Sequence record: MK295204
Length of the DNA: 64,000 nt
Reading direction: 5' to 3' (one strand)
From: Shigella phage vB_SdyM_006
The translations under genes were made by a program, and so were the position numbers. Below, one piece after another: positions 1,258 to 64,000 of this stretch; the first letter of the stretch is position 1, and the number at the start of each line of letters is the position of its first letter. The notes beneath the pieces are model-generated. The model saw only the letters and a list, made by a program, of their open reading frames with translations. It did not search any database and had not been told where the DNA came from.

Positions 1258-1280
1258 AGCCCGGGAAACCGGGCTATTTT
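1258..1280 (+). terminator. intrinsic terminator after gene 23
   Basis: Stem AGCCCGG, loop GAAA, stem CCGGGCT, then ATTTT. Confidence 0.6.
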
Positions 1281-1362
1281 ATTAATATTTTATCGTAAAG
1301 TATTAATAAAATATTTTAAACTCTAACAACTAAAAAGATTTATACTTTAAGAGAGAAATAAA

Positions 1363-2641: not shown

Positions 2642-2669
2642 TTTTTTGGGAACTTCGGTTCCCTTTTTA
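2642..2669. terminator. bidirectional intrinsic terminator between convergent genes
   Basis: TTTTTT, stem GGGAAC, loop TTCG, stem GTTCCC, TTTTT; between gp24 (+) and 2670..3233 (-). Confidence 0.65.
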
Positions 2670-3233
2670 TTAGAAAAAATCATCTAATGTAAACTCTTTA
2701 TATCCTATCATTTCTTTGAATTCGCACATCACTATTGGGTTATATAAATTATAAGTCTTTATCCCTAAATAACGTGCTAGATAAACAGCTGTTCTTGTCC
2801 CTCCAGAAACATTCCCATATTTATCCTCAGGTGCCCAAAATATAACTGAATCAACAGGATTTTCTAAAGTAGGTGTTAATATTTGCATACAATTTCTACA
2901 TTGAAGATGTTTAACAGTTTTAGAAACACTGTCTAATTTAGGATAAAATCTTCTTATAATATTAGCGGCTTTTTCTTGGATTTCGTCATTAAAGTCTGTA
3001 AATATATGAACACCATTCCCAGAATAGTGATTATTGAACCCCTGGTGAGGAATAATAACACATTTATTTTCAGATGAGTATTTCTTCATAAACAAATAAT
3101 CACTCCCAGGCGCTCCTCCTGATGTTCCTAGCACTCCTAAATTAGAAATATATTCTCCACCACTTATTAAAATATTAGATAAACGACTTGGTATTTTTCT
3201 TGACCCTATTAAAGCTACAGAATTTTTAACCAT
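2670..3233 (-). CDS. DprA/Smf-like SLOG (Rossmann-fold) protein
   Basis: Motifs IGSR, TSGGAPGSD and SGGTRTA resemble DprA/LOG-type nucleotide-binding fold; ATG with GAGGT RBS; a terminator hairpin sits immediately upstream. Confidence 0.5.
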   Translation of the reverse strand: MVKNSVALIGSRKIPSRLSNILISGGEYISNLGVLGTSGGAPGSDYLFMKKYSSENKCVIIPHQGFNNHYSGNGVHIFTDFNDEIQEKAANIIRRFYPKLDSVSKTVKHLQCRNCMQILTPTLENPVDSVIFWAPEDKYGNVSGGTRTAVYLARYLGIKTYNLYNPIVMCEFKEMIGYKEFTLDDFF

Positions 3234-3241
3234 GCTAACCT

Positions 3242-3262
3242 CAAAAAGGACCCGAAGGTCCT
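3242..3262 (-). terminator. intrinsic terminator directly upstream of the SLOG-like gene
   Basis: On minus strand: stem GGACC, loop TTCG, stem GGTCC, then TTTTT, then RBS and ATG at 3233. Confidence 0.55.
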
Positions 3263-3267
3263 TTAAT

Positions 3268-6518: not shown

Positions 6519-6716
6519 TTATTTTACCTCAATAATAGTGAGTTCAGTATCTTCTGTCAAATCACAAAAGTCAAAAGCCAATGCAGCAATACCTGGGTAT
6601 TCTGATTCGTCAATAATACATTCAGTATTATTATTTTTGATGTCTAAGGCTAATTGATAATTAGACGTAGTAAATCCAAGTTCAAGTTCTTCGCACCATA
6701 CGGTATACTTTTTCAT
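6519..6716 (-). CDS. small protein, tandem paralog A (65 aa)
   Basis: Begins MKKYTVWCEE, ends TIIEVK; paralog of adjacent gene. Confidence 0.55.
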   Translation of the reverse strand: MKKYTVWCEELELGFTTSNYQLALDIKNNNTECIIDESEYPGIAALAFDFCDLTEDTELTIIEVK

Positions 6717-6911
6717 TTATTTTACCTCAATGAGTTCACAATCGTATAAACAACTACACAGTTCACAAAAAGAATAAGCCGATGCATATGAATCAGTGTC
6801 TATCCAAAACCCAAGATTATCAATAGCACCTTTACGAACTTCATAAGCAAGTTGATAATCAACTGTTTCAAATCCAATTTTCTTTTCTTCGCACCATACT
6901 ATATATTTCAT
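6717..6911 (-). CDS. small protein, tandem paralog B (64 aa)
   Basis: Begins MKYIVWCEE, ends ELIEVK; abuts paralog A. Confidence 0.55.
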   Translation of the reverse strand: MKYIVWCEEKKIGFETVDYQLAYEVRKGAIDNLGFWIDTDSYASAYSFCELCSCLYDCELIEVK

Positions 6912-7756: not shown

Positions 7757-7977
7757 GTGATTTTAACACGATCATGATATATTACTCTATCATGGCTTTT
7801 TGAAACTGTAAATCCTTTTTCTTTAAGAATTTCAATCAACGCATCTTTAATGGCTTCATTTTCTGGAAGCTTTGCGTAATGCTCTGTACTATCATGCAAA
7901 GCCAGTTGGCAAATATCATTTAACACAATAGCTAAATTGTGTTCAACAACAGTATTTTTAAGATCAGATAAATTCAT
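7735..7977 (-). CDS. hypothetical protein (80 aa), first gene of leftward accessory operon
   Basis: ORF with ATG; candidate GTTTAC promoter upstream. Confidence 0.5.
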   Translation of the reverse strand: MNLSDLKNTVVEHNLAIVLNDICQLALHDSTEHYAKLPENEAIKDALIEILKEKGFTVSKSHDRVIYHDRVKITWDYSKC

Positions 7978-8010: not shown

Positions 8011-8039
8011 TACTATATTATAAAATAGTGTTTGTAAAC
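8011..8039 (-). promoter_or_regulatory. candidate early promoter for leftward accessory operon
   Basis: Minus strand GTTTAC, 16 nt spacer, TATAGT. Confidence 0.35.
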
Positions 8040-8062
8040 ATCTAAAATAATTTAAAATAAAT

Positions 8063-8091
8063 GTTTACTTTTGCTGTCATTATGATATTAT
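8063..8091 (+). promoter_or_regulatory. T4-type early promoter, copy 1 of repeated promoter/5'UTR cassette
   Basis: GTTTAC (8063-8068), 17 nt, TATTAT (8086-8091); followed by conserved leader ending GGAGTATATTATG. Confidence 0.6.
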
Positions 8092-8133
8092 ATACATATT
8101 GAAACGAAACATGAAAAACAAATGGAGTATATT

Positions 8134-8478
8134 ATGAATAAGACACAAATCAATGCAGTTTTAAAAACTTTAGGTTATGGTAATTTACGTTATTCTAATG
8201 GTAAAACATACCGCAGAGGAAACTCTATGGTTAAAGGTTTTCATTTAATTTCTACTGGTGCATGTATGGTGACTTCACCAGAAACACAAAAATTTAGTGA
8301 TCTTGTTAATGAGTTAAAACAACATTTTGAATTACAATCATATTATGACAATTGCATGGCAATATTTGTGACAGGAAAATTAAAAATTGTTGTTTGTTTA
8401 ACAAATTTTAATACATACGGTGGCTTAAACCCAGATTATAAAACATGGTTTGCATCTGTTAATATTGAAAAGTTATAA
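8134..8478 (+). CDS. hypothetical protein (114 aa), rightward moron-like gene
   Basis: ATG at 8134 preceded by GGAG; opposite orientation to neighbours; own promoter and terminator. Confidence 0.55.
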   Translation: MNKTQINAVLKTLGYGNLRYSNGKTYRRGNSMVKGFHLISTGACMVTSPETQKFSDLVNELKQHFELQSYYDNCMAIFVTGKLKIVVCLTNFNTYGGLNPDYKTWFASVNIEKL

Positions 8479-8481
8479 AAC

Positions 8482-8509
8482 AAAAATGGGACCGTAAGGT
8501 CCCATTTTC
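8482..8509. terminator. bidirectional intrinsic terminator
   Basis: AAAAA, stem ATGGGACC, loop GTAA, stem GGTCCCAT, TTTT; between 8134..8478 (+) and gp54 (-). Confidence 0.6.
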
Positions 8510-9422
8510 AAATTAATCTTGTTACAGCTCCTATTCCTCCTCCAGCACCACCTAATCTTGTTAAATTTCTTAATGAAGAGCTTAAAGAGTTTTCTTCTGA
8601 AATTGTATCTATGGCACCAATTGCTTTTGATTCTAACCAATCAAGAGCTGCTTGCCTACCGACAGAACCTACCTGCATCACCCTGTATGCGAATGTAACA
8701 TCAAAAACAGCAATAGTATTATTATCTTCATATGAAAGTTCAGGAGCACCTACCGACATAGGAACACACCCTGTGAACATGGCAACAGTATGTGGAAGAC
8801 CGTTTCTATTGTGTAAATTAACCTGGATATCGGCTTCAACATCTATAGGTAAAGCACGTAGTCCTGTGATTGGGTCTTCAACTGAATTCACCCAATCTTG
8901 CATAGCTCGATAATTACTTGCTTCTGAATCCATCCTAAACGAAATTATCAACGGGTCATATTCTCTAGATAGAACTTTTATATTAGGTGAATTATGATTT
9001 TTATCCATCTCATAAGATAGTCTGTTTTCTGGTAATTTGACAGAATAAACCATTAACCCAGATGTTGGAAATGCCATATTAAAGAAATCTAATAGATAAG
9101 TCCCTACTTCAAATTCTCCTAATAATGATTGAACCACACGATTAGACATGGCTCCTAAAAGATATTTAGAAACACCAGATTTTCTCACTAGTTTTTGAGT
9201 ACCAGCAACAACTAGACTTGATACTGCACTAGTTACATCATTTTGAGATATTCCAAGAAAATCTGTATCTATAGGTAAATTGTTAAACAAAAAACCACCA
9301 AAATTATCTAAAAGCTCATTAGTTTTTGATGATGGGGCTGTGGCAAAAACAACACTAAACATGTTTGTTCTTTGGAAGTCAAGATTGACAGCTTGGCTTT
9401 TAAATTCTTCTAATGTATACAT
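8508..9422 (-). CDS. 54: baseplate tail-tube initiator gp54-like
   Basis: 304 aa; position and size fit T4 gene order 29-48-54. Confidence 0.65.
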   Translation of the reverse strand: MYTLEEFKSQAVNLDFQRTNMFSVVFATAPSSKTNELLDNFGGFLFNNLPIDTDFLGISQNDVTSAVSSLVVAGTQKLVRKSGVSKYLLGAMSNRVVQSLLGEFEVGTYLLDFFNMAFPTSGLMVYSVKLPENRLSYEMDKNHNSPNIKVLSREYDPLIISFRMDSEASNYRAMQDWVNSVEDPITGLRALPIDVEADIQVNLHNRNGLPHTVAMFTGCVPMSVGAPELSYEDNNTIAVFDVTFAYRVMQVGSVGRQAALDWLESKAIGAIDTISEENSLSSSLRNLTRLGGAGGGIGAVTRLI

Positions 9423-14550: not shown

Positions 14551-14566
14551 AGTGTCTCCTCTTATT

Positions 14567-14574
14567 TATTTATA
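14567..14574 (-). promoter_or_regulatory. late promoter TATAAATA for gp51 operon
   Basis: Exact TATAAATA on minus strand, 17 nt from gp51 ATG. Confidence 0.6.
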
Positions 14575-14578
14575 AATA
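14571..14578 (+). promoter_or_regulatory. late promoter TATAAATA for gp26-gp25
   Basis: Exact TATAAATA on plus strand, 18 nt before gp26 ATG; overlaps minus-strand copy. Confidence 0.6.
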
Positions 14579-14595
14579 GATAAAAAGGAGACACT

Positions 14596-15180: not shown

Positions 15181-15559
15181 AATGAATGTTTTATATTCTG
15201 ACTTAGACCCTAAAATGGAAAAAGGCTGGGATAAAGACCTGCATAAAGTCGTAGGAGATAGGGCTGTCAAAAATTCTATTCTAGGAATAATTAGTACTAG
15301 GAAAGGGTCTAGACCCTTTGACCCAGAATTTGGGTGTAATATAACAGACCAATTATTCGAAAATATGAGTCCATTAATAGAAGACACTATAGAGCGATCT
15401 ATAGTTTCGGCTATTAAAAATTATGAGCCAAGAGTACAAAGATTAAAAGTTTCTGTTACTGCATTGTATGATTCAAATTCTATAGTTGTAGATATTATTT
15501 TTTCTATTGTAGATAATCCAGACACATTAGAACAGATAAAAGTTCAATTATCAAAATAG
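15173..15559 (+). CDS. 25: baseplate wedge protein gp25
   Basis: 128 aa; motif TRKGSRPFDPEFGC and overall co-linearity with T4 gp25. Confidence 0.9.
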   Translation: MSKMNVLYSDLDPKMEKGWDKDLHKVVGDRAVKNSILGIISTRKGSRPFDPEFGCNITDQLFENMSPLIEDTIERSIVSAIKNYEPRVQRLKVSVTALYDSNSIVVDIIFSIVDNPDTLEQIKVQLSK

Positions 15560-15760
15560 TTTACTATAGTTATTAATTTATTACTTAATAGTTATATATA
15601 ATATATAAAGAACTTAATAAAATAATAAAAATTCTGGAGCTGCGCTCCAGATTTCTTTAGAAATAGTAACATATAGTTATTAATTTATTACTTAATAGTT
15701 ATATAGAATATACTATACTTTTAATAAATTAATTTACTAGAGTTACTATTAATAGGCTAT
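15560..15760. repeat. AT-rich intergenic repeat region, copy 1
   Basis: Two copies of ATAGTTATTAATTTATTACTTAATAGTTATATA (from 15566 and 15673); about 85 bp near-identical to 52358..52441. Confidence 0.8.
15634..15650 (+). terminator. hairpin inside repeat region
   Basis: Stem CTGGAGC, loop TGC, stem GCTCCAG, then ATTTCTTT. Confidence 0.5.
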
Positions 15761-16609: not shown

Positions 16610-16816
16610 TGTTTCTAAATCTTCTAATTCTAATCTCTTGCCTTCTAAGGCATCTCTTATAGAGATATCATCAGTATCTTTAATTTCTAATTCTTTTATA
16701 CGTTTAGAATAATATTTTTCTAATTCGTCTAAACCAGCCAATGTTTGACATTCTCTTATTTTGTTCATAAAAGTTTCGACACTAGCTTCGATTAAAATAT
16801 CTTTAAATTTTAACAT
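16595..16816 (-). CDS. UvsW.1-like small protein
   Basis: 73 aa directly downstream of uvsW. Confidence 0.5.
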   Translation of the reverse strand: MLKFKDILIEASVETFMNKIRECQTLAGLDELEKYYSKRIKELEIKDTDDISIRDALEGKRLELEDLETEKDE

Positions 16817-18315
16817 AATTTTACCTCTCTCATAGAATAATCAAATTGTTCACTTGCATACCTTTCTATACGTTCTAAAGCGTGTTTTAATGCATAATTT
16901 AAATGTACATATTTCTTTTTAGAATTTTTAGATTTAGGTTTTACACCCATGTCATCTACAATGTCCCAAAGAACACCTTCAGCTTTAGAACCATGTAATC
17001 TAAGAACACGTCCAATAGATTGTAATACGGTTACTTTTGATTTAATTGGGTGTGCAAATATAACATGGTGTAAATTTTTTATAGATACACCAGCACTGAA
17101 AACACCATAAGAAGCGACTACAACCATCCCTGAGCGTTTTTCTGCTAAGGCCTTTATAATATCTCTATCTTTGTCTTTAACTTCTCCTGCGATAAAGAAG
17201 ACGTTTTCTTCGCCATATATAGCCTTACATGCCTCGTATAGATCTTTACCATGGGCTATTCTATCAAACATAACAAACACATTTTCATTTTTAGATGCTA
17301 ATTTACATGCAAGTTTAGCTATCCATTCATTACGCTGTTTAGCTTTAATAATGATTTTAATTTCATCTTGATACGAAAATCCTTTAACTTTTTCTGTAAA
17401 CGCATCCGGGTATCTTAAAAACAAAGTATTAATTTTAAGTTTAGACACTTGTCCTGCTTCCATTAGTTCAGCCGTGGACACTGGTTTGTATATATCTCCA
17501 AATAATCCGATATATTGCATTACATTAGCTTTGCCATCTTTAACGGTTCCTGTTAGCCCGAATTTAAATTTACAGTTGTTTAATCCGTTAATAATAGTAC
17601 TAATACTTTTACCAGTCGCTAAATGACACTCATCATTCATTAACATTCCAAATTGACTAAACCATTCTTTTGGTTGCTTAATAGCTGTCTGCCAGGTTGA
17701 TACGTAAACCAAAGCATCAGAATCTTTAGCTGTACCGCCTTTTATTCCTAATAACATTTCTTTAGAAAATAGTCTATAGTCGACTAAGTCATCAATCATT
17801 TGTTTAACAAGAATAGTTGTTGGAACTAAAATTAAAACTTTACCTTGAAAGTTTTCTATATAATAACGTGCTAAGAGCGCCTGGATCAACGATTTACCAG
17901 CTGATGTAGGTAAATTCAATAAAGCTCTATTTTGTGTTAAGCCTTTAACTACAGAATCTTTTTGATACCAATGAGGCGTTATCTTAGATGACCCAGAATA
18001 TATTTCTTTAGAATCTATCCAATCAGAAACTTCTTTTTCAGTAATATCGCCATTATCATATATTTTAGGATCCGTTTCTACAGTATAGTCCATATTAGAA
18101 GCAAACTTTTTAACATAGTTCACAAGCCCGTATGGTAATAAGCCGTCATACCCTAAAATTCTAATCTTGCCGTCCCATTGACCATATTTAAATTTTGGAT
18201 TAAATTGGTACCCAGGAGTTTCGAAAGAGAAATAATCTCTTAATTCAAAGAACACAGAATCTTCACACTCGATTTTTACACTACTATAATCGTAAAACTT
18301 TAATTTAATATCCAT
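16810..18315 (-). CDS. uvsW: DNA/RNA helicase UvsW
   Basis: Strong co-linearity with T4 UvsW from MDIKLKFYDYS; helicase motifs LNLPTSAGKS and DECH; track ORF has 13-codon extension, start placed at MDIK. Confidence 0.9.
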   Translation of the reverse strand: MDIKLKFYDYSSVKIECEDSVFFELRDYFSFETPGYQFNPKFKYGQWDGKIRILGYDGLLPYGLVNYVKKFASNMDYTVETDPKIYDNGDITEKEVSDWIDSKEIYSGSSKITPHWYQKDSVVKGLTQNRALLNLPTSAGKSLIQALLARYYIENFQGKVLILVPTTILVKQMIDDLVDYRLFSKEMLLGIKGGTAKDSDALVYVSTWQTAIKQPKEWFSQFGMLMNDECHLATGKSISTIINGLNNCKFKFGLTGTVKDGKANVMQYIGLFGDIYKPVSTAELMEAGQVSKLKINTLFLRYPDAFTEKVKGFSYQDEIKIIIKAKQRNEWIAKLACKLASKNENVFVMFDRIAHGKDLYEACKAIYGEENVFFIAGEVKDKDRDIIKALAEKRSGMVVVASYGVFSAGVSIKNLHHVIFAHPIKSKVTVLQSIGRVLRLHGSKAEGVLWDIVDDMGVKPKSKNSKKKYVHLNYALKHALERIERYASEQFDYSMREVKLC

Positions 18316-18329: not shown

Positions 18330-18337
18330 TATAAATA
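18330..18337 (+). promoter_or_regulatory. late promoter TATAAATA for inh-like/hoc
   Basis: Exact TATAAATA 33 nt before ATG at 18371. Confidence 0.5.
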
Positions 18338-18343
18338 CATATA

Positions 18344-18351
18344 TATTTATA
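18344..18351 (-). promoter_or_regulatory. late promoter TATAAATA upstream of uvsW
   Basis: Exact TATAAATA on minus strand about 29 nt before uvsW ATG. Confidence 0.45.
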
Positions 18352-20221: not shown

Positions 20222-20281
20222 GATATTCTCCTTTGTTGTTGATGTAAGTATAGTAACACTACACAAAGGAGATGTAAACAA

Positions 20282-22345
20282 TTAAATAATAAATTTTTCT
20301 GGGACAAAAGTAAGATCAACAGCTGTTGATAATAATTCTAGCCCTTTTTGACTAATTTTACCAGTATTTTCTTTTAAGAATTCTTTAAACCCAATTTTTT
20401 CGATTTTTCCTTCAGATAAAAACTTATTTCCGTCAATAAGTTCGCTTTCATCTAGTAATTCTGGATCCACTACAGATGTTTCTACTAATATTGGTCTATT
20501 AAATTCTATATCACGAGCGTTTTCATAACCGTGGATAGAATGAATCTTAAGAGCTAAACCTCTAGGTAAAATCACCTCGCATTCACTAGAGTATTTTGAC
20601 ATATTACCAGGAATAATAACATTGACTTTATGTGCACCTTTAATAGTTATACCCATAGAAATGTTAATATCTGTTTTCTTAGTTGCTTTCTTACCATTAA
20701 CGGCTACACCAATATTTTTTGGTGTCATAACTGTTGATATAACATCATCGAATGTTTCGGATTCAAAAGTTACTGTAGTCGCGTTAGGTTTAATATTATC
20801 AAGAACATCATTTCGTTCCCCAAAAATAATTGGAGCTAATGAAGTCGAAATATAATTAGGAAAATATAATGTTTTATTTTTAGCAGCTTTTTCTACGTCG
20901 GCATAAGGTAATTTTTGTGCTCTATATAAAATAGTTCCTTTTTCTAACTTGGTTCCTTTTTTGAAGGCCCCATCTAAGACAGGAATTTTGTTTTCATACA
21001 CAGATTTTAAACTTTTATCTTTACCAAGCAAAAAGTCGTTCATTTCTTCATATCCACGTAAAGCATAATCTGTGATAACTTTTCGCTCTTCTTCTGTTAA
21101 ATCCATTTCTGTTTCGGTTCTAAATAACTCTTCTAAAGGAGTATAGAAAACATTTCTGTTTAAAGCAGAGATACAGCCTCTTAAAGCTCTAGTCTTAGCC
21201 ACATTATCGTCAGGTCCATATGTTTCTAAATCTTCGGCTATTTTTTTGTAAACATCCATAGCATTATTAGAAGTTTTGAGCGCATTGTTAATTATCAATA
21301 TATACGGTTTTGCTAATTTATATTTTTCTTCACTAGATAAATGATAAAAATTTTCAACACCATACCCAGATATGCGTTCTAAAGAATCTAATAAAAATCT
21401 AGCTTCTAGATCTGATTCTTCTTCACTCACGGCCGAATTTATTTTATCTAAAAACACAGATTTAGATTCATCAATTTTATTAAGGACATTTTTATGAACT
21501 AATGCAATTTTTGTAGAATCACTTTGGACAATAGGAGGATTATCTTGTAGTTCAATATATTTTCTTCTTCCTTCTTCAGAATAATTTTCTAAGTCTTCTG
21601 GTTTAGAAACACCATACATTGCTGATAATAATTCACGTCTAGAAACTTTAGTTTTTGAAATGACAGATCGTTCACTTCTTGTGTTTTCTTGTGCTGCAAT
21701 ACTTCCTGCAATGGCTTCTAATTTAGACACTTGCTTGCCAGTTTTGTCATTGATATACACATCACCTACTTTAGAATCGACTTTAGTATATAAGTCAGAA
21801 TCAATACCAGGAATCCCAGCGATGTCTTCTAAAGGTCTGTTTTTACGATATATTAAAACATAAGCATGTTTACCTGTAAATTGATACAAATCTTCTAAGA
21901 CAACAAATTTACCACCAGTACGTTGCATAGCCAGACGTTTGATTATTCTTTGTAATGTCTTTTCTTGGCCTTTCATTTTTTTAGCAGGGAATCTAAATAA
22001 AACTGCGTCCATTTTAAGTTTTTTAACTTGTTCGTATACAGTGTCAAAAATAGTATTCAATGCCCCAATAGGGTCTGAGCCTAAACCATTTCTTAATTCT
22101 GCTGCATTACCATTTTTAGACAAACTCATCAAAAACACTTGAACAAATTTATCACCTTGCTTTACTGCTTTTAATGCATCGCCTTTAGATAAATAAGACA
22201 CCATTCTAACTAAAAGATTGTCATTTCCAGGAACACTGACATTCCATAATTGAGGGACCTTAGCCCTTTTATTAAGATTAATAGCTTTATATTGAGCTAT
22301 TTCTGAATCAAAAACCTCATTTAAATTAATTTCATTTAATTCCAT
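20282..22345 (-). CDS. alt: ADP-ribosyltransferase Alt
   Basis: 687 aa (T4 Alt 682 aa); R-S-E type motifs YRAQ, YISTS, ECEVILPRG; late promoter upstream. Confidence 0.85.
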   Translation of the reverse strand: MELNEINLNEVFDSEIAQYKAINLNKRAKVPQLWNVSVPGNDNLLVRMVSYLSKGDALKAVKQGDKFVQVFLMSLSKNGNAAELRNGLGSDPIGALNTIFDTVYEQVKKLKMDAVLFRFPAKKMKGQEKTLQRIIKRLAMQRTGGKFVVLEDLYQFTGKHAYVLIYRKNRPLEDIAGIPGIDSDLYTKVDSKVGDVYINDKTGKQVSKLEAIAGSIAAQENTRSERSVISKTKVSRRELLSAMYGVSKPEDLENYSEEGRRKYIELQDNPPIVQSDSTKIALVHKNVLNKIDESKSVFLDKINSAVSEEESDLEARFLLDSLERISGYGVENFYHLSSEEKYKLAKPYILIINNALKTSNNAMDVYKKIAEDLETYGPDDNVAKTRALRGCISALNRNVFYTPLEELFRTETEMDLTEEERKVITDYALRGYEEMNDFLLGKDKSLKSVYENKIPVLDGAFKKGTKLEKGTILYRAQKLPYADVEKAAKNKTLYFPNYISTSLAPIIFGERNDVLDNIKPNATTVTFESETFDDVISTVMTPKNIGVAVNGKKATKKTDINISMGITIKGAHKVNVIIPGNMSKYSSECEVILPRGLALKIHSIHGYENARDIEFNRPILVETSVVDPELLDESELIDGNKFLSEGKIEKIGFKEFLKENTGKISQKGLELLSTAVDLTFVPEKFII

Positions 22346-22375: not shown

Positions 22376-22383
22376 TATTTATA
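22376..22383 (-). promoter_or_regulatory. late promoter TATAAATA for alt
   Basis: Exact TATAAATA on minus strand about 30 nt before alt ATG. Confidence 0.55.
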
Positions 22384-22387
22384 CCAA

Positions 22388-22410
22388 AAAGGAGACCGAA
22401 GTCTCCTTGT
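22388..22410 (-). terminator. intrinsic terminator (UUCG tetraloop family)
   Basis: Minus strand AAGGAGAC-TTCG-GTCTCCTT then T-run; same hairpin at 27314..27336, near-copy at 26969..26992. Confidence 0.6.
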
Positions 22411-22425: not shown

Positions 22426-22635
22426 TTATTCACCAATTTCTTCTAAGAAATTCTCATAATCAGTTGGGAATCTTTTCCAAAACTTTTTAATTTTTTGTTC
22501 TTTATTCTTGCATTCTGCCAATGAAATCATTAAACCGTTATCAGAATCAGATTCAACTCGTGTTAATGTTAAACCTAATTCAGAAAGTGCTGTTAAGTGA
22601 TTTTGTGCCAATACATATAAATATAAATCAAACAT
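22426..22635 (-). CDS. hypothetical protein (69 aa)
   Basis: Track ORF starts at TTG; ATG at 22635 preceded by GGAGTATATT leader of cassette copy 2. Confidence 0.5.
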   Translation of the reverse strand: MFDLYLYVLAQNHLTALSELGLTLTRVESDSDNGLMISLAECKNKEQKIKKFWKRFPTDYENFLEEIGE

Positions 22636-22675
22636 AATATACTCCGTTGTTTCCGTGTGTTGTTTCAATATGTAT

Positions 22676-22704
22676 ATAATAACATGTCTACAGCAAAAGT
22701 AAAC
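22676..22704 (-). promoter_or_regulatory. T4-type early promoter, cassette copy 2
   Basis: Minus strand GTTTAC, 17 nt, TATTAT; leader near-identical to copies at 8063 and 22989. Confidence 0.6.
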
Positions 22705-22723
22705 ATGTTATTGTGGCTTTTTA

Positions 22724-22960
22724 TTAAATAATTCTAGCTATCAATGCAGAAGTATTAATACTAACAGTAAATTCCATTGGCGTTTCATCTTCTTCAGAAC
22801 TAATTACCATTGAATGGATTTCGGTAACACCAGATACGGATAAAACTCTATCTTCAATAATAGTTATATGTGAAGAATATTCAAAAGGACCATATGGGTC
22901 TCCATCTAATCTAGATGTATCTTTAAGCATTTTTAACAATTCAGCACTTGATAATTTCAT
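22724..22960 (-). CDS. hypothetical protein (78 aa)
   Basis: Track ORF extends through promoter; ATG at 22960 preceded by GGAGTATATA. Confidence 0.5.
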   Translation of the reverse strand: MKLSSAELLKMLKDTSRLDGDPYGPFEYSSHITIIEDRVLSVSGVTEIHSMVISSEEDETPMEFTVSINTSALIARII

Positions 22961-22988
22961 TATATACTCCATTTTCGTATGTTGTTTC

Positions 22989-23017
22989 AATATGTATATA
23001 ATAACATGTCTACAGCA
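22989..23017 (-). promoter_or_regulatory. T4-type early promoter, cassette copy 3
   Basis: Minus strand GTTTAC, 17 nt, TATTAT, directly after terminator hairpin. Confidence 0.6.
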
Positions 23018-23022
23018 AAAGT

Positions 23023-23038
23023 AAACAAAAAAGAGCCT
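23023..23038 (-). terminator. intrinsic terminator fused to early promoter
   Basis: Minus strand stem AGAGCC, loop GAAA, stem GGCTCT, TTTTTT, then GTTTAC. Confidence 0.55.
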
Positions 23039-23045
23039 TTCGGCT

Positions 23046-23249
23046 CTAAATAATTTTTGATAAATCATCTTGTATTGCTAAGATTTTATGAAAATCTGAT
23101 TCTCTTATAGGACAAGACTTATCTAACTTAAATGATATTAAAGAATTCATAAAGATAGATTCTATTTGTTCTTCTAAATCATCTATTAAAATATTCTTCT
23201 GGTGATTGTCCAAAGATTTCATAAAAGTCATTTGCCTCTTGTTTATCAA
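23046..23249 (-). CDS. hypothetical small protein, start uncertain
   Basis: ORF overlaps ligase 3' end by 71 nt as drawn; true start may be an internal ATG. Confidence 0.3.
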   Translation of the reverse strand: MINKRQMTFMKSLDNHQKNILIDDLEEQIESIFMNSLISFKLDKSCPIRESDFHKILAIQDDLSKII

Positions 23250-25296: not shown

Positions 25297-25739
25297 TATG
25301 CATCCTCATATTTAATTGCCATAAGAGCCTTTTTAGTGAATTCGTAGATGTCAATATTTTTAACACCTTGGCTTAAAATAGATTCCACTGTTTTATCAAG
25401 AACTGGCTTAATAAAAGGTCCTTGAAGATTCATTGTTCCAGTTCTATCTTTAAATGCGATAACGAATTTACGATCGACCCAATTATTTTTGGGTTCAAGA
25501 TTTTCTATTTTTTCAAAATAACCATGTTCATCAACGTCAATAATAAACGCTACTGTAAAATCGTCTTCGGTTAAAGTTTCGTCACCACATTTAAGTTTTT
25601 TGACATGTCCACTTTCGTCAAGTTCAATAACTTTAAATGGGCTATTTGAGATAGCATTAGCAATACGTTCATTAGAATAATTTTCATCAACAAATCCGTC
25701 AATGTCAATTAATTTATACCAACCATTTAATTCAAACAT
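25296..25739 (-). CDS. hypothetical protein, tandem paralog (147 aa)
   Basis: SNSPFKVIELDESG resembles GKNPFKVLALGPGN of next gene. Confidence 0.5.
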   Translation of the reverse strand: MFELNGWYKLIDIDGFVDENYSNERIANAISNSPFKVIELDESGHVKKLKCGDETLTEDDFTVAFIIDVDEHGYFEKIENLEPKNNWVDRKFVIAFKDRTGTMNLQGPFIKPVLDKTVESILSQGVKNIDIYEFTKKALMAIKYEDA

Positions 25740-25746
25740 AGTATTC

Positions 25747-26955: not shown

Positions 26956-26968
26956 ATATCCTCTAAAC

Positions 26969-26992
26969 CAAAAAAGGAGACCGGAGTCTCCT
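26969..26992 (-). terminator. intrinsic terminator (tetraloop family)
   Basis: Minus strand AGGAGAC-TCCG-GTCTCCT then TTTTTT. Confidence 0.55.
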
Positions 26993-26999
26993 TAATCAT

Positions 27000-27236
27000 T
27001 TATAGTGTCACCAAATCCAAGATACGCTCTATTTGGTCAATAATTGCTTTGCCAGAGTCATTATCGTAAACAAACTTTGTTAATGCTATATTTCTTATAG
27101 TAGTTGTTTTTGCTAATTCTTTAAGATCGTTATTAAAGAAATAAAGTGCGTCGGCTTCATTGTCGAAATACTTATTATAAACCTTTTTTTCTTTAACAAT
27201 TCTGTATACTAAATTATATTGAGTTGATGTTGACAT
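27000..27236 (-). CDS. hypothetical protein (78 aa)
   Basis: ATG with GGAGG RBS; early promoter upstream. Confidence 0.5.
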   Translation of the reverse strand: MSTSTQYNLVYRIVKEKKVYNKYFDNEADALYFFNNDLKELAKTTTIRNIALTKFVYDNDSGKAIIDQIERILDLVTL

Positions 27237-27264: not shown

Positions 27265-27294
27265 ATAATATCCTTTTTTAAAAGAGAAGTAAAC
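27265..27294 (-). promoter_or_regulatory. T4-type early promoter
   Basis: Minus strand GTTTAC, 18 nt, TATTAT, immediately after terminator. Confidence 0.5.
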
Positions 27295-27313
27295 ACTTAT
27301 TTTCAATAAAACC

Positions 27314-27336
27314 AAAAAAGGAGACCGAAGTCTCCT
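27314..27336 (-). terminator. intrinsic terminator (UUCG tetraloop family)
   Basis: Same hairpin as 22388..22410. Confidence 0.6.
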
Positions 27337-27342
27337 TAAATT

Positions 27343-27474
27343 TATTTCTTGTTTCCTAAATTAGCTAAAAACTTAGCTCGCCCATTTTCTTGTCGTTTAA
27401 CAAATCCAACCAGTTTGTCTAGGTCTTGGTTAATACGTTTATTTGTTTTTCGTTTGTAACCTTTACGTGCGGAC
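27343..27474 (-). CDS. small basic protein (43 aa), not in ORF track
   Basis: ATG at 27474; translation MSARKGYKRKTNKRINQDLDKLVGFVKRQENGRAKFLANLGNKK. Confidence 0.3.
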
Positions 27475-27485
27475 ATAGTAATTCC

Positions 27486-31222: not shown

Positions 31223-32220
31223 TAAAAGTCACCTCTATTAACTTGCCAGCACTCAAGTCCAAGAACTCGCCACATATCAACTACTTGTTGACGGTCATCT
31301 AAAACATAAAGAACATTATACCTATTTGCAATGTGTTTGTAAAACAATTCTTTCTTAACAATAGAATCTTTTCTATGATCTTTATGACTACGCATAATAA
31401 GCTTAGAATATTTTACGCCGTGTTTGTTAAGCCATTTTTCGGTCCCAATACGATGCTCTTTTTCTTCACCTTCTTCGCGTCCAGATGTTAATAATATCTC
31501 AACACCTAAATCATGCATCATATTAATATGATTAATAACATTTTGACGAGGTGTATCTTTCCATAATTTATACAGGTCATGTGGGCTACGATGATTGTTG
31601 TCAGCAATAGTTCCATCAATATCAACAATAATAGCTTTAGGCAAATCTAAAGTCTTAGACCAATCAGGAACACCATGCAAGTAATGTTGCATTTTTTCAT
31701 AAAACGAATAAATTACTGCTGGAGGAACTGCTGATTCTCCACGGTACAAGTTTCGTTTATATAGTGTTTCTAAGTCTTCATCAAAATAAACCCAATCAAG
31801 CTGGTATTTAAAGGTTTTAGCAATATCTTTCCATTTATCTCGTGTTTTTGGATTTAAGTTTGTGTCTGACACAATAACAATGCGATGACCAGATTTATTA
31901 AGCCATTCAACTGCGAGCAATTGCTGTTTATCTGTAACTTCTCGCTCACGTTGTTTTGATGGCTTATATTCATTACGCTTGCAATTAAATAGTTCACAGC
32001 GTAAATCATCACGATTAACATTTAGAACAATACCTGGATTAGCAGATACCATTTCTTCAGCCCAAGTAGATTTACCAGAACCTGGTGCACCAACTGTCAT
32101 AATAATTTGTTTTACAAATTCTTCTTTTGGTTTTGGAATATCATAACCCATGTACTTAAGAACCTGTTCATTTTCAATATTAACCCAAGTAATATCATCA
32201 CTTTGCATTGGTACAAACAT
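31222..32220 (-). CDS. pseT: polynucleotide 5'-kinase / 3'-phosphatase
   Basis: P-loop GAPGSGKST, phosphatase DIDGT, C-terminal WRVLGLECWQV match T4 Pnk; true start probably internal. Confidence 0.9.
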   Translation of the reverse strand: MFVPMQSDDITWVNIENEQVLKYMGYDIPKPKEEFVKQIIMTVGAPGSGKSTWAEEMVSANPGIVLNVNRDDLRCELFNCKRNEYKPSKQREREVTDKQQLLAVEWLNKSGHRIVIVSDTNLNPKTRDKWKDIAKTFKYQLDWVYFDEDLETLYKRNLYRGESAVPPAVIYSFYEKMQHYLHGVPDWSKTLDLPKAIIVDIDGTIADNNHRSPHDLYKLWKDTPRQNVINHINMMHDLGVEILLTSGREEGEEKEHRIGTEKWLNKHGVKYSKLIMRSHKDHRKDSIVKKELFYKHIANRYNVLYVLDDRQQVVDMWRVLGLECWQVNRGDF

Positions 32221-34454: not shown

Positions 34455-34511
34455 GTTAACCTCTCATTTTCAAATTTGTCTTACTATATTATAAAAATGA
34501 GAGGTTGTAAA

Positions 34512-36037: not shown

Positions 36038-36044
36038 AAAAATA

Positions 36045-36060
36045 AAGGGCCGAAGCCCTT
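36045..36060 (-). terminator. intrinsic terminator after nrdB
   Basis: Minus strand AAGGGC-TTCG-GCCCTT then TATTTTT. Confidence 0.5.
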
Positions 36061-36064
36061 CTCC

Positions 36065-37237
36065 TTATAAGTATTTCTTAAATCCATCTAAAACTTCTGG
36101 ATTAATATCTTCATCAATTTGAGAAATTAAATAAGAATCGATTTCAACTTCTTGAGGTGCTGATTGAACACCTTCAGAATTTAGATATTTAGACATCCAG
36201 ACTAAAGGATTTTTAAGACCTTTATATGGACTATTTAATCCAGCATGACGCATTCGGATATCAGTAATATAGTCTACATAGCCTTTAAGATTTGTATGGT
36301 TTAAACCTGAGACAGTCCCAAATTTAAACAGATCATCTACCCAATCTTTTTCTTGTTGATTTACTTCTAAGAATAATGTAGTAGCTTCTTCTTCAAGTTC
36401 ATCTGCGATTTTTTTCCAGTGTTCGCCTTCTTTACCAGATTGCCATTGACGAATCATATATTGAGTGCCTTTAAGATGTAATTGTTCATCACGGGCAATC
36501 AACTTCATGATTTTGGTATTGCCTTCAAGAACACCTTTGTTTTCGAAGAAATTAAATGTACACGCAAAAGATACATAAAACCGAATAGCTTCTAAAGCAT
36601 TAATGGCATGCATACATAGATATAGTTTACGCATGGCATCATCTAAATCTTTTTCATATCGATTCCAAGCGCCAATTAATTGGAATCCTGTTGGGTCTCG
36701 TTGTTCTTCTTCCTCAATAATGTCTTTAATATTTTCGTATTCTCTGATAGCCTTAATTAAAGAATCATAATATTTTGTGATTGATTCTGCACGAGCCATA
36801 ATAGCATCATCAAGAACAATTTCGTCAAATTCTTTTGATGGGTCTTCATAAAGATTACGCATAATATGAGTATAAGACCTAGAATGAATTGTTTCGCTAA
36901 ATGACCATGTTTGAATCCATGTTTCTAATGAGACATCAGAACAAATAGACAATAAAGCTTCTGATGGACCACGTCCTTGAATAGAATCAAGAAGTGTTTG
37001 ATATTTTAAGTTATTAGTAAAAATTCTTTTTTCGTGTTCAAGTAATTTGTCGTACTGTGATTTGTCTGTCATTAAATTAACTTCTTCTGGCCGCCAAAAA
37101 AAGCTTAAAGCTTTTTCAGTCAAATCTTCAAAGACTCGATGTTTTACTGTTTCGTAACGTGCAATACCTGTTGATTCACCAAAGAACATTGGCTGAGACA
37201 TGATGTCGATTTGTTCTTTATTAAAAATAGTTGCCAT
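36065..37237 (-). CDS. nrdB: ribonucleotide reductase beta subunit (class Ia), uninterrupted
   Basis: Co-linear with T4 NrdB (FFWRPEEVNL, SYTHIMRNLY, EAIRFYVSFACTFNF); single continuous ORF. Confidence 0.95.
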   Translation of the reverse strand: MATIFNKEQIDIMSQPMFFGESTGIARYETVKHRVFEDLTEKALSFFWRPEEVNLMTDKSQYDKLLEHEKRIFTNNLKYQTLLDSIQGRGPSEALLSICSDVSLETWIQTWSFSETIHSRSYTHIMRNLYEDPSKEFDEIVLDDAIMARAESITKYYDSLIKAIREYENIKDIIEEEEQRDPTGFQLIGAWNRYEKDLDDAMRKLYLCMHAINALEAIRFYVSFACTFNFFENKGVLEGNTKIMKLIARDEQLHLKGTQYMIRQWQSGKEGEHWKKIADELEEEATTLFLEVNQQEKDWVDDLFKFGTVSGLNHTNLKGYVDYITDIRMRHAGLNSPYKGLKNPLVWMSKYLNSEGVQSAPQEVEIDSYLISQIDEDINPEVLDGFKKYL

Positions 37238-37377
37238 TTTAATCCTTAATTTTTCTTTTTACAAGGGTCCCATCTTTTACTGCTTTGTCATAAGCAATTT
37301 TAATTAATCGTAGACGTTCCACTTTAGAATTTCTAATTTTGTTAAAATCTATCTCGGACGAATCCGAGATAGTTGTA

Positions 37378-43510: not shown

Positions 43511-43544
43511 AGAATCTCCAAAGGGACTTTCGTCCTTTAATTTA

Positions 43545-43895: not shown

Positions 43896-43902
43896 ATTGT
43901 TC

Positions 43903-44434: not shown

Positions 44435-44463
44435 ATAATATCACGCTAAAAATCTTTGTAAAC
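44435..44463 (-). promoter_or_regulatory. T4-type early promoter
   Basis: Minus strand GTTTAC, 17 nt, TATTAT, just after gp32 terminator. Confidence 0.55.
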
Positions 44464-44482
44464 ATTTATTTTCTATAAAACC

Positions 44483-44508
44483 AAAAAAGGAACCCGAAGG
44501 TTCCTTTT
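44483..44508 (-). terminator. intrinsic terminator after gene 32
   Basis: Minus strand AGGAACC-TTCG-GGTTCCT then TTTTTT. Confidence 0.6.
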
Positions 44509-52525: not shown

Positions 52526-52547
52526 AAAATGCTCTTTTATAAATAGT

Positions 52548-58892: not shown

Positions 58893-58922
58893 ATAATACT
58901 ATATCTAAAAAGCTTTGTAAAC
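58893..58922 (-). promoter_or_regulatory. T4-type early promoter for motA
   Basis: Minus strand GTTTAC, 18 nt, TATTAT, directly after terminator. Confidence 0.55.
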
Positions 58923-58942
58923 AGTTATTTTCAATAAAATGC

Positions 58943-58966
58943 AAAAAGGAGCACAAGGCTCCTTAA
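58943..58966 (-). terminator. intrinsic terminator
   Basis: Minus strand AAGGAGCC-TTGT-GCTCCTT then TTTT; near-identical hairpin at 59901..59920. Confidence 0.55.
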
Positions 58967-59866: not shown

Positions 59867-59896
59867 ATAATATCATGATAACATTTGTATGTAAAC
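59867..59896 (-). promoter_or_regulatory. T4-type early promoter
   Basis: Minus strand GTTTAC, 18 nt, TATTAT, directly after gp52 terminator. Confidence 0.5.
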
Positions 59897-59900
59897 AAAA

Positions 59901-59920
59901 AAAGGAGCACAAGGCTCCTT
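59901..59920 (-). terminator. intrinsic terminator after gene 52
   Basis: Same hairpin as 58943..58966, then TTTTTTT. Confidence 0.55.
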
Positions 59921-61279: not shown

Positions 61280-61296
61280 TATTACTCCTAATACAA

Positions 61297-61314
61297 AAAG
61301 GCCTTTCGGCCTTT
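61297..61314 (-). terminator. intrinsic terminator
   Basis: Minus strand AAAGGCC-GAAA-GGCCTTT then TTGTAT. Confidence 0.5.
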
Positions 61315-62467: not shown

Positions 62468-62484
62468 TTTATCTCCATACGAAA

Positions 62485-62502
62485 AATGGGCCGAAGCCCA
62501 TT
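62485..62502 (-). terminator. intrinsic terminator
   Basis: Minus strand AATGGGC-TTCG-GCCCATT then TTTT. Confidence 0.5.
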
Positions 62503-62519
62503 ATTTAATAATTTAATGT

Positions 62520-62720
62520 TTATTTAGATAATTCTTTAATATCTTTATGATATCCTGCTTTAACTTCTCGTAATGCAGATAAACCACAAGAAGGTTCTCT
62601 ACCAGAAATAACACAACTATTAATTTGGGCTTCAACCTGAAGTAATTTGCCAAATAAGTATTCACGTTCTACAGCACAGCCATATTTAGCTTTTCCAAAT
62701 CTTCTTTCTATAGATTTCAT
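62520..62720 (-). CDS. hypothetical protein (66 aa)
   Basis: ORF. Confidence 0.45.
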   Translation of the reverse strand: MKSIERRFGKAKYGCAVEREYLFGKLLQVEAQINSCVISGREPSCGLSALREVKAGYHKDIKELSK

Positions 62721-62783
62721 TTAAGTACTCCCACTAAGAATTAAGTATGAGAGTACTATACTATTAAAACTACAGTTTGTAAA

Positions 62784-64000
62784 CTATCTAAATCGTTTTT
62801 TGAATGTTTCAGTAACATCTTCAAGAACAGTATAACCACATGTTCTCATTTTAGCATCATTATAGTCAACAGGAATAGAAACTACATCACGTGGATGAAC
62901 CTTAACTGACACAATACGTCGATTACCGACAGCACCAATATATGATTCAGAACATACATGAAGACCAGAAGAACACGTTACATTGTCGTCTTCATCAACG
63001 GTATTTCTTGGAACTTCAACACGTTTTCCTGGTGAATTATCAAAAGTACCACTAAAACAATCTTTATAATCGTTACGGACATATTTCCATGCAATAAAAT
63101 GACCATCTTCTGTGATTTCAATATCCGTTGCCATTAAGAAATCATATAAACGTGCTACCGCTTTACGACTAGGATTCAACATTAAATTTTCTAAGAATGG
63201 TAGCAAGAATTCGAAATCTTTACCTTCTTTCATCATCTCGATAATTTTACGAGTTAATCCAGAATCAACAACAAGGTCTTTGTAATATAATGTAGAGCCT
63301 TCAATTTTGATATGGCCTTTTGTGTATGATTTAATAGCACGGCGTGTATTAATTAAATCCAAAGCCTTTTTAACGTGAGTCTGTTCTTTTTGGACATCGC
63401 CTTCAGAAATAGCAGACATTGCTTTTGATAATTGATTTAAAGCCGTAGTAAAGTTATCATGGTCTTTACCTGCATTATATGTTTTAGTCCCAACAGTAAT
63501 AGAAATAAATTTACTATTAGCATTCCATACTAAATTTTCTAATTCAGGCTCTTGCTTAACAACTTCAGGCTTAGATTCAGGTTCTTGTTTAATAGGTTTA
63601 GCTCTAAGAGTTTTAACATGTGTAGTGATATCTGATCTTTGATTATCATGATTAGGTGCATAAACAATACGGCTTAATTCTAAATCTGCAACTTTTAAAA
63701 TACCAGGAACAAATAAATCATTTTCTCCTGAGAAATTGTCTCGATTTTTAGGGTTATTGATACACAACGTGTGGCATTTTAATACAGGAGATTTTAATGC
63801 TGGGTCAATAAGAACATCATCAGCAAAAATCCAAGAATAAGTCTCATTTTTTGAAGGAACAAATTCTTGTTCTTTTAATACACGTGTAATTGTATCTGAA
63901 GAAACATTAAAGTGACGAGCAATCAAAGCTTTAGTTTTTCCTTCAGAAAACAGACGATAAACCGTCTGTTTTTGTTGTTCGTTTAAAATTTTAACAGCCA
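62784..64000 (-). CDS. helix-turn-helix domain protein, N-terminus beyond window
   Basis: Track start at 63926 is TTG; frame stays open to window edge; N-terminal TVYRLFSEGKTKALIARHFNVSSDTITRVL looks like an HTH. Confidence 0.5.
   Translation of the reverse strand, partial: AVKILNEQQKQTVYRLFSEGKTKALIARHFNVSSDTITRVLKEQEFVPSKNETYSWIFADDVLIDPALKSPVLKCHTLCINNPKNRDNFSGENDLFVPGILKVADLELSRIVYAPNHDNQRSDITTHVKTLRAKPIKQEPESKPEVVKQEPELENLVWNANSKFISITVGTKTYNAGKDHDNFTTALNQLSKAMSAISEGDVQKEQTHVKKALDLINTRRAIKSYTKGHIKIEGSTLYYKDLVVDSGLTRKIIEMMKEGKDFEFLLPFLENLMLNPSRKAVARLYDFLMATDIEITEDGHFIAWKYVRNDYKDCFSGTFDNSPGKRVEVPRNTVDEDDNVTCSSGLHVCSESYIGAVGNRRIVSVKVHPRDVVSIPVDYNDAKMRTCGYTVLEDVTETFKKRFR

Follow-up and report, generated by a model that had tools for sequence, protein, structure and literature searches.

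Tetraloop hairpins of a T4-like Proteus phage as probable intrinsic terminators, several joined to early promoters in PeSL-type units

In T4-type phages, a strong early promoter, the A/T-rich stretch upstream of it and a stem-loop are combined between genes into promoter-early stem-loop (PeSL) elements, which number ~50 per genome and concentrate before orphan genes in hyperplastic regions (PMC2839356). In RB49/phi1, the stem-loop of a PeSL cut reporter expression as much as rrnB T1 did, the promoter proved strong, and recombination between flanking PeSLs gave mini-circles (PMC2839356). The description was later extended to T4/PST, with the promoter consensus TTTACW-N17-TAYWAT, and to KVP40/nt-1, the stems of nt-1 having the form A3-4G3-loop-C3T3-4 (PMC4122927). 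The UUCG tetraloop was itself first found in T4 mRNA (PMC4371310). Here we analyse a family of short hairpins with UUCG, GAAA and related loops in 64,000 nucleotides of sequence record MK295204 (Shigella phage vB_SdyM_006), the whole of which is referred to below as the window. The hairpins probably act as Rho-independent terminators for transcription units of the early and middle classes; a number of them would form PeSLs together with the early promoter of the next gene, and the nearly identical units would also serve as homology patches for cassette exchange; we put the probability of this reading at about 0.8.

By its sequence, the window comes from a T4-like Proteus phage of the genus Bragavirus, family Straboviridae. 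Its DNA is 99.1% identical to that of Proteus phage SJ_PmiM and 98.4% identical to that of phiP4-3 (Straboviridae, Bragavirus); identity to PM2 and Pm5461 is ~85%. The composites described below match the published PeSL elements of T4-type phages, being repeated units beside small orphan genes and at boundaries of gene-cassette indels between relatives, and this genus had not been analysed for PeSLs before. Early and middle genes occupy the minus strand (alt, DNA ligase, rIII, cd, pnk, nrdAB, td, frd, 32, 59, motA, 52, ndd, denB, rIIB), and head, baseplate and tail-fibre genes the plus strand; G+C content is ~31%.

A sequence-only reading of the window had noted a UUCG hairpin with a U-run on the minus strand at 22388, 26969 (as a variant) and 27314, positions that take in the T-run. 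This was confirmed. The 20-mer AAGGAGACTTCGGTCTCCTT, which has the architecture AAGGAGAC-TTCG-GTCTCCTT and leads into a T-run, is present exactly on the minus strand at 22408-22389 and 27337-27318 and with one mismatch (loop TCCG) at 26993-26974. These three matches compare with 0.00 in 100 shuffles. Around the first copy (centroid energy -11.8 kcal/mol, z -3.4), the minus-strand reading of 22470-22330 includes gaaTAAataaataatataaaaacAAGGAGACTTCGGTCTCCTTtttggTATAAATAgtaat. Every other site listed earlier was recovered by our own hairpin scan and a tool scan. The six related tetraloop stems of the sequence-only reading all exist, 1-3 nt from where it had placed them, except that the loops at 58964 and 59920 are CUUGU pentaloops; these two hairpins are identical over 26 nt. 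The list had missed 23047, 61314, 37372, 43538 and, on the plus strand, 2648 and 1258. A UNCG loop closed by a C-G pair is found at 22408, 27337, 3264, 36061, 44508, 62502 and 2648(+) as UUCG and at 26993 as UCCG; the pentaloops at 58964 and 59920 and the hairpin at 37372, with its A-U closing pair, fall outside this class. All hairpins are collected in the table.

The sequence-level hallmarks of intrinsic (Rho-independent) terminators are all present, and the earlier proposal that the hairpins are terminators is supported by their stems, loops, U-runs, position relative to stop codons and sense orientation of the loops. Stems comprise 6-10 bp with 3-4 G-C pairs and carry loops of 4-5 nt. Folding energies range from -9.3 to -13.8 kcal/mol and z-scores from -2.2 to -3.4 (-1.1 for the weak hairpin at 43538, which is destroyed in phiP4-3 by an 8-nt deletion). 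Five to seven consecutive T follow the stem at all nine sites listed earlier and at 23047 and 61314. On the coding strand, the distance from stop codon to stem start is -2 to 19 nt at every site, one stem overlapping the stop. Terminator-like sites are enriched ~2.7-fold over shuffled sequence, with 19 found against 7.0+/-2.8 at 20-40 kb and 19 against 6.7+/-2.8 at 44-64 kb. The count of CTTCGG is 18 compared with 8.4+/-3.0 expected, and the seven copies in intergenic hairpins make up most of the excess. In 12 of 12 cases (seven intergenic CTTCGG, the A-U-closed UUCG at 37372 and four GAAA) the loop reads in the sense of the gene before it. Palindromic stems are strand-symmetric, so that loops that are always mRNA-sense point to selection on RNA and not on a DNA palindrome. 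At convergent gene ends (8510-8481, 19947-19922, 15633-15651, 52497-52515) hairpins are flanked by A-runs and T-runs on both sides and their loops vary freely among close relatives, some being inverted, which fits bidirectional terminators.

The only unbiased set for judging hairpin conservation consisted of 19 loci retrieved by gp32 homology alone. In 18 of these 19 T4-like loci, no more than 75 nt separate the gene 32 stop from a strong hairpin, whose loop is UUCG in 10 of the 18; GTTTAC comes next in most. The stems at this position differ by fully compensated changes (GGAACC/GGUUCC, GGAGAC/GUCUCC, GGACUC/GAGUCC, GGAGCC/GGCUCC, GGGGACC/GGUCCCC). In the hairpin alignment, 94% of the pair counts are paired and double changes occur at 8 of 8 pairs, figures that are partly circular because the window hairpins had been picked by a hairpin finder.

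Promoters were sought with the motif TTTACW-N16/17-TAYWRT, a slightly relaxed form of the published T4/PST-type PeSL consensus, which has 15 matches in the window, 12 of them on the minus strand, against 1.79+/-1.20 expected. Five hairpins (27337, 44508, 58964, 59920 and 23047) are joined to a predicted early promoter downstream. It had been proposed that GTTTAC boxes follow several hairpins within 5-10 nt. GTTTAC is indeed present at the four units in question (minus strand, 27294-27289, 44463-44458, 58922-58917 and 59896-59891), but 59920 and the unlisted 23047 are the only sites where the gap from stem to box is 5 nt; at 27337, 44508 and 58964 it measures 23 nt. The positions that had been assigned to the -35 boxes (27265, 44435, 58893, 59867) are the low-coordinate ends of these promoters, where the -10 lies. 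Fusion to early promoters, noted earlier as frequent in the family, holds for the five hairpins named above and not for the 22408 copy, which precedes the late-type motif TATAAATA, the T4 late-promoter consensus. The 23-nt gap at 27337, 44508 and 58964 is filled by the conserved A/T-rich TTTTATTGAAAATAA(G/A/C)T, and the spacer motif TTTTATTGAAAATAASTGTTTAC is found at three sites with 0 expected. We interpret this spacer as an UP element, since T4 early promoters have been described as UP/-35/TGn/-10 promoters (PMC2988021).

At three promoters (20279, 34512 and 62784) a stem overlaps the promoter or the 5' untranslated region (5'UTR). The 3' arms of these stems (34455-34511, 62721-62783 and 20222-20281) cover the Shine-Dalgarno (SD) sequence, and at 62721-62783 both arms lie 3' of the -10 box, within the 5'UTR; the three match those PeSL sub-classes that have a stem overlapping the promoter or placed 3' of the -10 box. 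The motif TATAAATA is under-represented window-wide (11 copies, 17 expected), and most of its copies precede genes of the late or dual-mode kind, some as back-to-back pairs where two genes diverge (examples of the motif are 14567-14578, 18330-18351, 22376-22383, 45593-45600 and 52538-52545). The 45-nt gap at 14551-14595 is a near-perfect palindrome.

The composites recur as repeats. One family of 54 nt, made up of hairpin, spacer and GTTTAC, is 72-85% identical across 27342-27289, 44511-44458 and 58970-58917 and 61-85% identical over all six listed copies. Another, of 56 nt, is 96% identical between 23027-22972 and 22705-22650; its unit extends to ~75 nt, comprising promoter, 5'UTR, SD and ATG, and three copies head three mutually unrelated open reading frames (ORFs). 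An 84-nt unit is found at 4-7 places per Bragavirus genome and matches 237 phage records, mostly from Escherichia, Klebsiella and Shigella phages. Units precede the 'hypothetical protein' ORFs 27000-27236, 22724-22960, 22426-22635, 43903-44406, 59593-59838 and 62520-62720, and one precedes the conserved gene motA.

To relate the units to cassette gain and loss, the window was aligned to phiP4-3, SJ_PmiM and PM2, and the boundaries of aligned blocks were collected where at least 100 bp changed. Ten of ~56 boundaries fall within 40 nt of a hairpin or early promoter, zones that make up 4.6% of the window (binomial P=2e-4, the null being a random position and not gene junctions). Counted as events, 7 of ~29 indels involve a hairpin or promoter element. 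The association between units and indels is partial, and individual cases illustrate it. In place of the orphan-gene cassette at 62517-62798, SJ_PmiM and PM2 have a different hairpin alone between rIIB and denB, AAGGGAC-UU(A/C)G-GUCCCUU. Two ORFs and a weak hairpin at 43511-44403 are missing from PM2; the insertion falls precisely between the terminator-promoter unit of gene 32 and the start codon of frd. Between hairpins 23047 and 22408, PM2 has one ORF, 44% identical to ORF 22724-22960; the window has that ORF followed by the second promoter cassette copy and an unrelated ORF (indel 22433-22921). The PM2 orthologue of hairpin 26993 is a complete hairpin-spacer-promoter unit, 98% identical over 59 nt to the 27337 unit and followed by an extra ORF of 492 bp (indel at 26951/26965). 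In PM2, the orthologue of ORF 27000-27236 therefore lies between two units that are nearly identical.

Other differences between relatives are of another kind. At 25709-25746, ~600 bp extra in SJ_PmiM with a 37-bp overlap had been suspected to reflect repeat-mediated exchange. This candidate was rejected: the extra DNA is a tandem paralog with no hairpin or promoter unit, its product starts MFEL..WY like that of the neighbouring gene, and the difference is therefore one of paralog gain or loss by homologous recombination. About 1 kb at 6711-7759 with two ORFs (6717-6911 and 6908-7756) is missing from both SJ_PmiM and PM2; its boundaries are tight gene junctions without hairpin or promoter, the closest early-promoter pair (8012-8091) being ~250 nt off.

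Hairpins also differ at orthologous sites where their surroundings are conserved. Upstream of motA, the window has AAGGAGC-CUUGU and SJ_PmiM and PM2 have AAGGAGAC-UUCG-GUCUCCUU, with the next 72 nt 97% identical; local identity at this site is 57% at the hairpin compared with 80-95% around it. After gene 52, AAGGAGC-CUUGU of the window corresponds to AAGGGAC-UUUU in SJ_PmiM and PM2 and to AAGGAACC-UUCG in JS98. Before alt, AAGGAGAC-UUCG of the window stands opposite AAGGGC-UUAG of PM2, and at 23047 AGAGCC-GAAA stands opposite AGGGAC-UUUU. The CUUGU copy at the motA site is identical over 26 nt to the copy 955 bp away, in this lineage only. Across genera, GGAGAC-UUCG occurs after gene 32 in an RB69-like locus (L017) and several other T4-like loci, JS98 has GGAACC-UUCG after gene 52, and the hairpin types after genes 32 and 52 are permuted among Bragavirus, Dhakavirus and Mosigvirus. 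A scan of viral contigs for the exact core GGAGACTTCGGTCTCC (GGAGAC-UUCG-GUCUCC), meant as a test for T4-specific spread, found at least 120 stretches that carry it, many being short metagenome contigs, and in 93 of 120 the core is followed by at least 5 T in the next 8 nt. Stem turnover fits either exchange between units or repeated convergence, the latter being plausible given so common a core. We consider it unlikely that short-patch gene conversion between units moves the hairpin module separately from the gene and promoter beside it. The different hairpins at the motA site and the permuted types after genes 32 and 52 would be consistent with such exchange. If it were so, and if the exchange were directed (by cruciform- or hairpin-targeted repair or by mini-circle spread), terminator-promoter modules of 20-60 nt would amount to enzyme-less mobile regulatory DNA across phage genera.

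Taken together, the data suggest the following course of events. Host RNA polymerase on the minus strand would run past the stop codon, and the nascent RNA would fold into a G+C-rich stem of 6-10 bp topped by a highly stable tetraloop, C(UUCG)G or GAAA. The 5-7 U that follow would, judging by the sequence, release the transcript or at least attenuate transcription. Five of the hairpins are followed, 5 or 23 nt further on, by an A/T-rich stretch resembling an UP element and a GTTTAC...TATTAT promoter; these would restart transcription for the next small gene, as their agreement with the consensus suggests. Units that both stop and restart transcription would make each orphan gene insulated and self-sufficient. 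With a length of 50-85 nt and near-identity at several loci, the units could also act as homology patches where cassettes are inserted, deleted or swapped, as the comparison with three related phages indicates.

Several observations weigh against this picture. A generic sigma-70 scan of this AT-rich DNA showed no enrichment (99 hits against 104 in shuffles and 116 against 109), so that the promoter call rests on the T4-specific consensus and on position. For six hairpins (3264, 26993, 36061, 43538, 61314 and 62502) no early-type promoter match was found before the next gene, middle MotA-type promoters not having been searched for; efficient termination at these sites would silence that gene. 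The terminators there may be leaky, or the next genes may depend on read-through, and read-through of early transcripts is a recognised route of T4 middle expression (PMC2988021). The UUCG loop is not strictly kept in relatives, where UUAG occurs three times and UACG and UCCG once each. About 22 of the 29 indel events lie away from the elements and involve homing endonuclease genes, tail-fibre mosaics, gain or loss of paralogs and diverged genes. Finally, since GGAGAC-UUCG-GUCUCC is common in viral contigs, identity of stems alone is no proof of common descent or mobility.

The hairpins might instead be mainly RNA-stability or processing elements, or weak attenuators, that keep exonucleases from the 3' ends of upstream messages and are read through by most polymerases. 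Stems that are short (6-10 bp, -9 to -14 kcal/mol) and the six promoter-less hairpins, where read-through is perhaps needed, lend weight to this view. Every hairpin, however, has the U-tract that is required for termination and not for a stability element, most core hairpins of other viral contigs have one too, and the PeSL stem-loop matched rrnB T1 in lowering reporter expression (PMC2839356). We regard the stability explanation as possible but doubtful; terminator and stability roles are in any case compatible and not mutually exclusive. If the palindromes acted as DNA, being cruciform or protein-binding recombination sites or repeats of the repetitive extragenic palindromic (REP) or miniature inverted-repeat transposable element (MITE) type, their terminator look would be incidental. 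Such a role would account for hairpin 'alleles' that differ between close relatives within conserved flanks, as at the motA site, and for the identical 26-nt hairpin at two sites in this lineage; the PeSL authors, too, speculated on a stem-loop-binding recombination protein (PMC2839356). Yet a strand-symmetric DNA site would not need loops of one sense in 12 of 12 cases, the hairpins always lie just past a stop codon and always with a 3' T-run, and inspection of the printed flanks by eye, with no dedicated search, revealed no terminal inverted repeats or target-site duplications. A mobile palindromic repeat of the REP/MITE type was rejected, orientation being always sense, position always after the stop codon, and duplications not being visible by eye in the printed flanks. 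An Rfam scan of the whole window at gathering thresholds gave zero matches, and plain homologous recombination through units of 50-85 nt accounts for the indels; we strongly doubt a DNA-level role.

Some members could serve translational control, the hairpin bringing a distant SD near the start codon or sequestering it. The best case is the hairpin 36061-36044, which lies between a GGAG and the ATG of endonuclease II at a linear distance of 22 nt. Folding of the hairpin (36038-36067) would give GGAG and ATG normal spacing, and T4 genes 38 and 25 have a similar split SD arrangement. Five stems moreover hold AAGGAG paired with CUCCUU, an anti-SD-like pairing. Against this, the other members have their real SD at normal spacing 3' of the hairpin, at least 27 nt separate the AAGGAG of the stems from any start codon, and the explanation fits one or two members at most; we consider it improbable. 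Chance palindromes in AT-rich DNA, for which nothing speaks beyond the low G+C content, are practically negligible as an explanation: shuffles refute them (three copies of the 20-mer against 0 expected), terminator-like sites are 2.7-fold enriched, and position and orientation are conserved across genera. We therefore favour intrinsic terminators, several of them parts of PeSLs, as the probable identity of the hairpins.

Table. Hairpins, promoters and cassettes in the window. Sequences in RNA letters are given 5' to 3' on the strand indicated.
Feature	Position	Strand	Context
Hairpin AAGGAGAC-UUCG-GUCUCCUU + U-run	22384..22408	-	17 nt past stop of 69-aa orphan ORF (22426-22635)
UCCG-loop variant hairpin + U-run	26968..26993	-	6 nt past stop of ORF 27000-27236; no promoter after
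Second exact AAGGAGAC-UUCG-GUCUCCUU hairpin + U-run	27312..27337	-	4 nt past stop of ORF 27342-27476
Hairpin AAAGGACC-UUCG-GGUCCUUU (DNA AAAGGACC-TTCG-GGTCCTTT, 3264-3245) + U-run	3240..3264	-	3 nt past stop codon
Hairpin GAAGGGC-UUCG-GCCCUUU (stem-loop 36061-36044) + U-rich tail	36038..36061	-	Between nrdB stop with SD-like GGAG and endonuclease II ATG
Predicted gene 32 terminator hairpin AAAAGGAACC-UUCG-GGUUCCUUUU (DNA AAAAGGAACC-TTCG-GGTTCCTTTT, 44508-44485) + U-run	44479..44508	-	
Pentaloop hairpin AAGGAGC-CUUGU-GCUCCUU (stem-loop 58964-58946) + U-run	58941..58964	-	Upstream of motA
Second CUUGU hairpin copy (stem-loop 59920-59902) + 7 U	59897..59920	-	3 nt past gene 52 stop
Hairpin AAUGGGC-UUCG-GCCCAUU (stem-loop 62502-62485) + U-run	62480..62502	-	End of orphan-gene cassette
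Hairpin AGAGCC-GAAA-GGCUCU (stem-loop 23047-23032) + 6 U	23027..23047	-	GTTTAC 5 nt later
Hairpin AAAGGCC-GAAA-GGCCUUU (stem-loop 61314-61297) + U-run	61292..61314	-	Between ndd and gene 52
Weak GAAA hairpin, z -1.1	43521..43538	-	End of two-ORF cassette 43511-44403
10-bp hairpin CUAUCUCGGA-UUCG-UCCGAGAUAG, A-U closing pair, weak U-tail (AUUUUAAC)	37349..37372	-	5 nt past nrdA stop
Hairpin GGGAAC-UUCG-GUUCCC (stem-loop 2648-2663) + UUUUUAUUA	2648..2672	+	After capsid vertex gene; predicted late-gene terminator
Hairpin AGCCCGG-GAAA-CCGGGCU (stem-loop 1258-1275) + U-rich tail	1258..1283	+	After major head gene
A/T-rich UP-like spacer TTTTATTGAAAATAAGT + predicted early promoter GTTTAC-N18-TATTAT	27265..27311	-	For ORF 27000-27236
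UP-like spacer + predicted early promoter GTTTAC-N17-TATTAT	44435..44478	-	
UP-like spacer + predicted early promoter GTTTAC-N18-TATTAT	58893..58940	-	Upstream of motA
Predicted early promoter GTTTAC-N18-TATTAT	59867..59896	-	5 nt past stem
Late-promoter motif TATAAATA	22376..22383	-	Directly 3' of 22408 hairpin, before alt (20282-22345)
Promoter + 5'UTR + SD cassette, copy 1	22950..23026	-	Heads ORF 22724-22960
Promoter + 5'UTR + SD cassette, copy 2	22625..22704	-	Heads unrelated ORF 22426-22635, not matched at this position in PM2
Promoter + 5'UTR + SD cassette, copy 3	8063..8136	+	Opposite strand; heads unrelated ORF 8134-8478
Cassette of predicted early promoter (62784-62755) + 66-aa orphan ORF (62720-62520)	62517..62798	-	Missing from SJ_PmiM and PM2

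The window contains a further repeat, the A/T-rich unit TATAGTTATTAATTTATTACTTAATAGTTATATA(G/T)AATATA..., which occurs in tandem pairs at 15556-15748 (before uvsY) and 52356-52507 (between tail-fibre genes 35/36). Over 86 nt these two regions, far apart and each between late genes, share 99% identity. PM2, at a genome identity of only ~85%, has the unit with hardly any change, and phiP4-3 has a third copy at uvsY. Inspection of the unit by eye revealed neither convincing promoter spacing nor a MotA box. In T4, the origins oriF and oriG are located at uvsY and gene 34, a parallel that is one of position only. Beside these repeats, the bidirectional hairpins 15633-15651 and 52497-52515 have loops that are reverse-complemented in close relatives (TGC and GCA; TTT and AAA), and in the hairpin ending at 8510 (8481-8510) the loop differs among phiP4-3, SJ_PmiM and PM2 with the stem constant. 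The loop differences of the bidirectional hairpins suggest loop inversion or template switching at palindromes.

Homing endonuclease genes are polymorphic in presence among the relatives at 37239-37377, 41320, 16814-16828 and 31223-31241, and the window has none of them. In phiP4-3, such a gene is located between nrdA and nrdB and another within a td intron; in PM2, they are found in or adjoining the uvsW helicase gene and beside pnk. The 227-nt 'gap' at 40423-40649 contains two tiny hydrophobic ORFs (~32 and 20 codons), which are unannotated in phiP4-3; at the matching site a 99-bp ORF (32 codons) is annotated in SJ_PmiM and PM2.

Our search of the literature for Term-seq or 3'-end maps of T4 terminators and for regulation in T4-like phages of Proteus found nothing specific, and the paper on the related Morganella phage MP1 merely gives counts of predicted terminators and promoters. 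The present map of probable early transcription-unit boundaries is ready for use in annotating Bragavirus phages, which are candidates for Proteus therapy. It would extend the PeSL picture to another branch of the T4 superfamily, in which compact stop/restart units appear to insulate small orphan genes and mark several sites of cassette gain, loss and swap.

The window units and PeSLs (Arbiol et al. 2010, PMC2839356; Comeau et al. 2014, PMC4122927) have in common a sigma-70-type early promoter, an A/T-rich stretch and a putative stem-loop terminator within one intergenic composite. Both are repeated many times per genome, before small orphan genes and at the boundaries of indels and replacements between close relatives. 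The promoters of the window fit TTTACW-N17-TAYWAT, and its stems resemble the A3-4G3-loop-C3T3-4 of nt-1. Most stem-loops of the window precede the -35 box, an arrangement that represents one of five published PeSL sub-classes. The Proteus host and the genus Bragavirus, in contrast, lie outside the sample of those papers, and stems in the window are of the GGAG/GGAC type with UUCG or GAAA loops, whereas those of RB49 are Gn-loop-Cn. Reporter and mini-circle data come from PeSLs of RB49/phi1; for the window units, function is inferred from sequence and from such experiments on related phages.

C(UUCG)G hairpins were reportedly described in phage T4 mRNA by Tuerk et al. in 1988, and the window hairpins resemble these hairpins and terminators of T4 in their extra-stable C-G-closed tetraloop, their location in intercistronic regions of T4-type mRNA and the site after gene 32, where the T4-like loci L015, L016 and L018 have GGGGACC-CUAGA-GGUCCCC. 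They differ in stem sequence: the window has GGAACC-UUCG after gene 32 and GGAGAC-UUCG at other sites, whereas the RB69-like locus and several other T4-like loci have GGAGAC-UUCG after gene 32. A third parallel is offered by morons, the promoter-gene-terminator units of lambdoid phages, which are discussed in PMC2839356. The segment 62798-62480, with its predicted promoter, 66-aa ORF and terminator, is similarly self-contained and present or absent among relatives. Morons, however, have no flanking repeated regulatory sequences, whereas in the window the repeated promoter and terminator units would themselves supply the homology for exchange.

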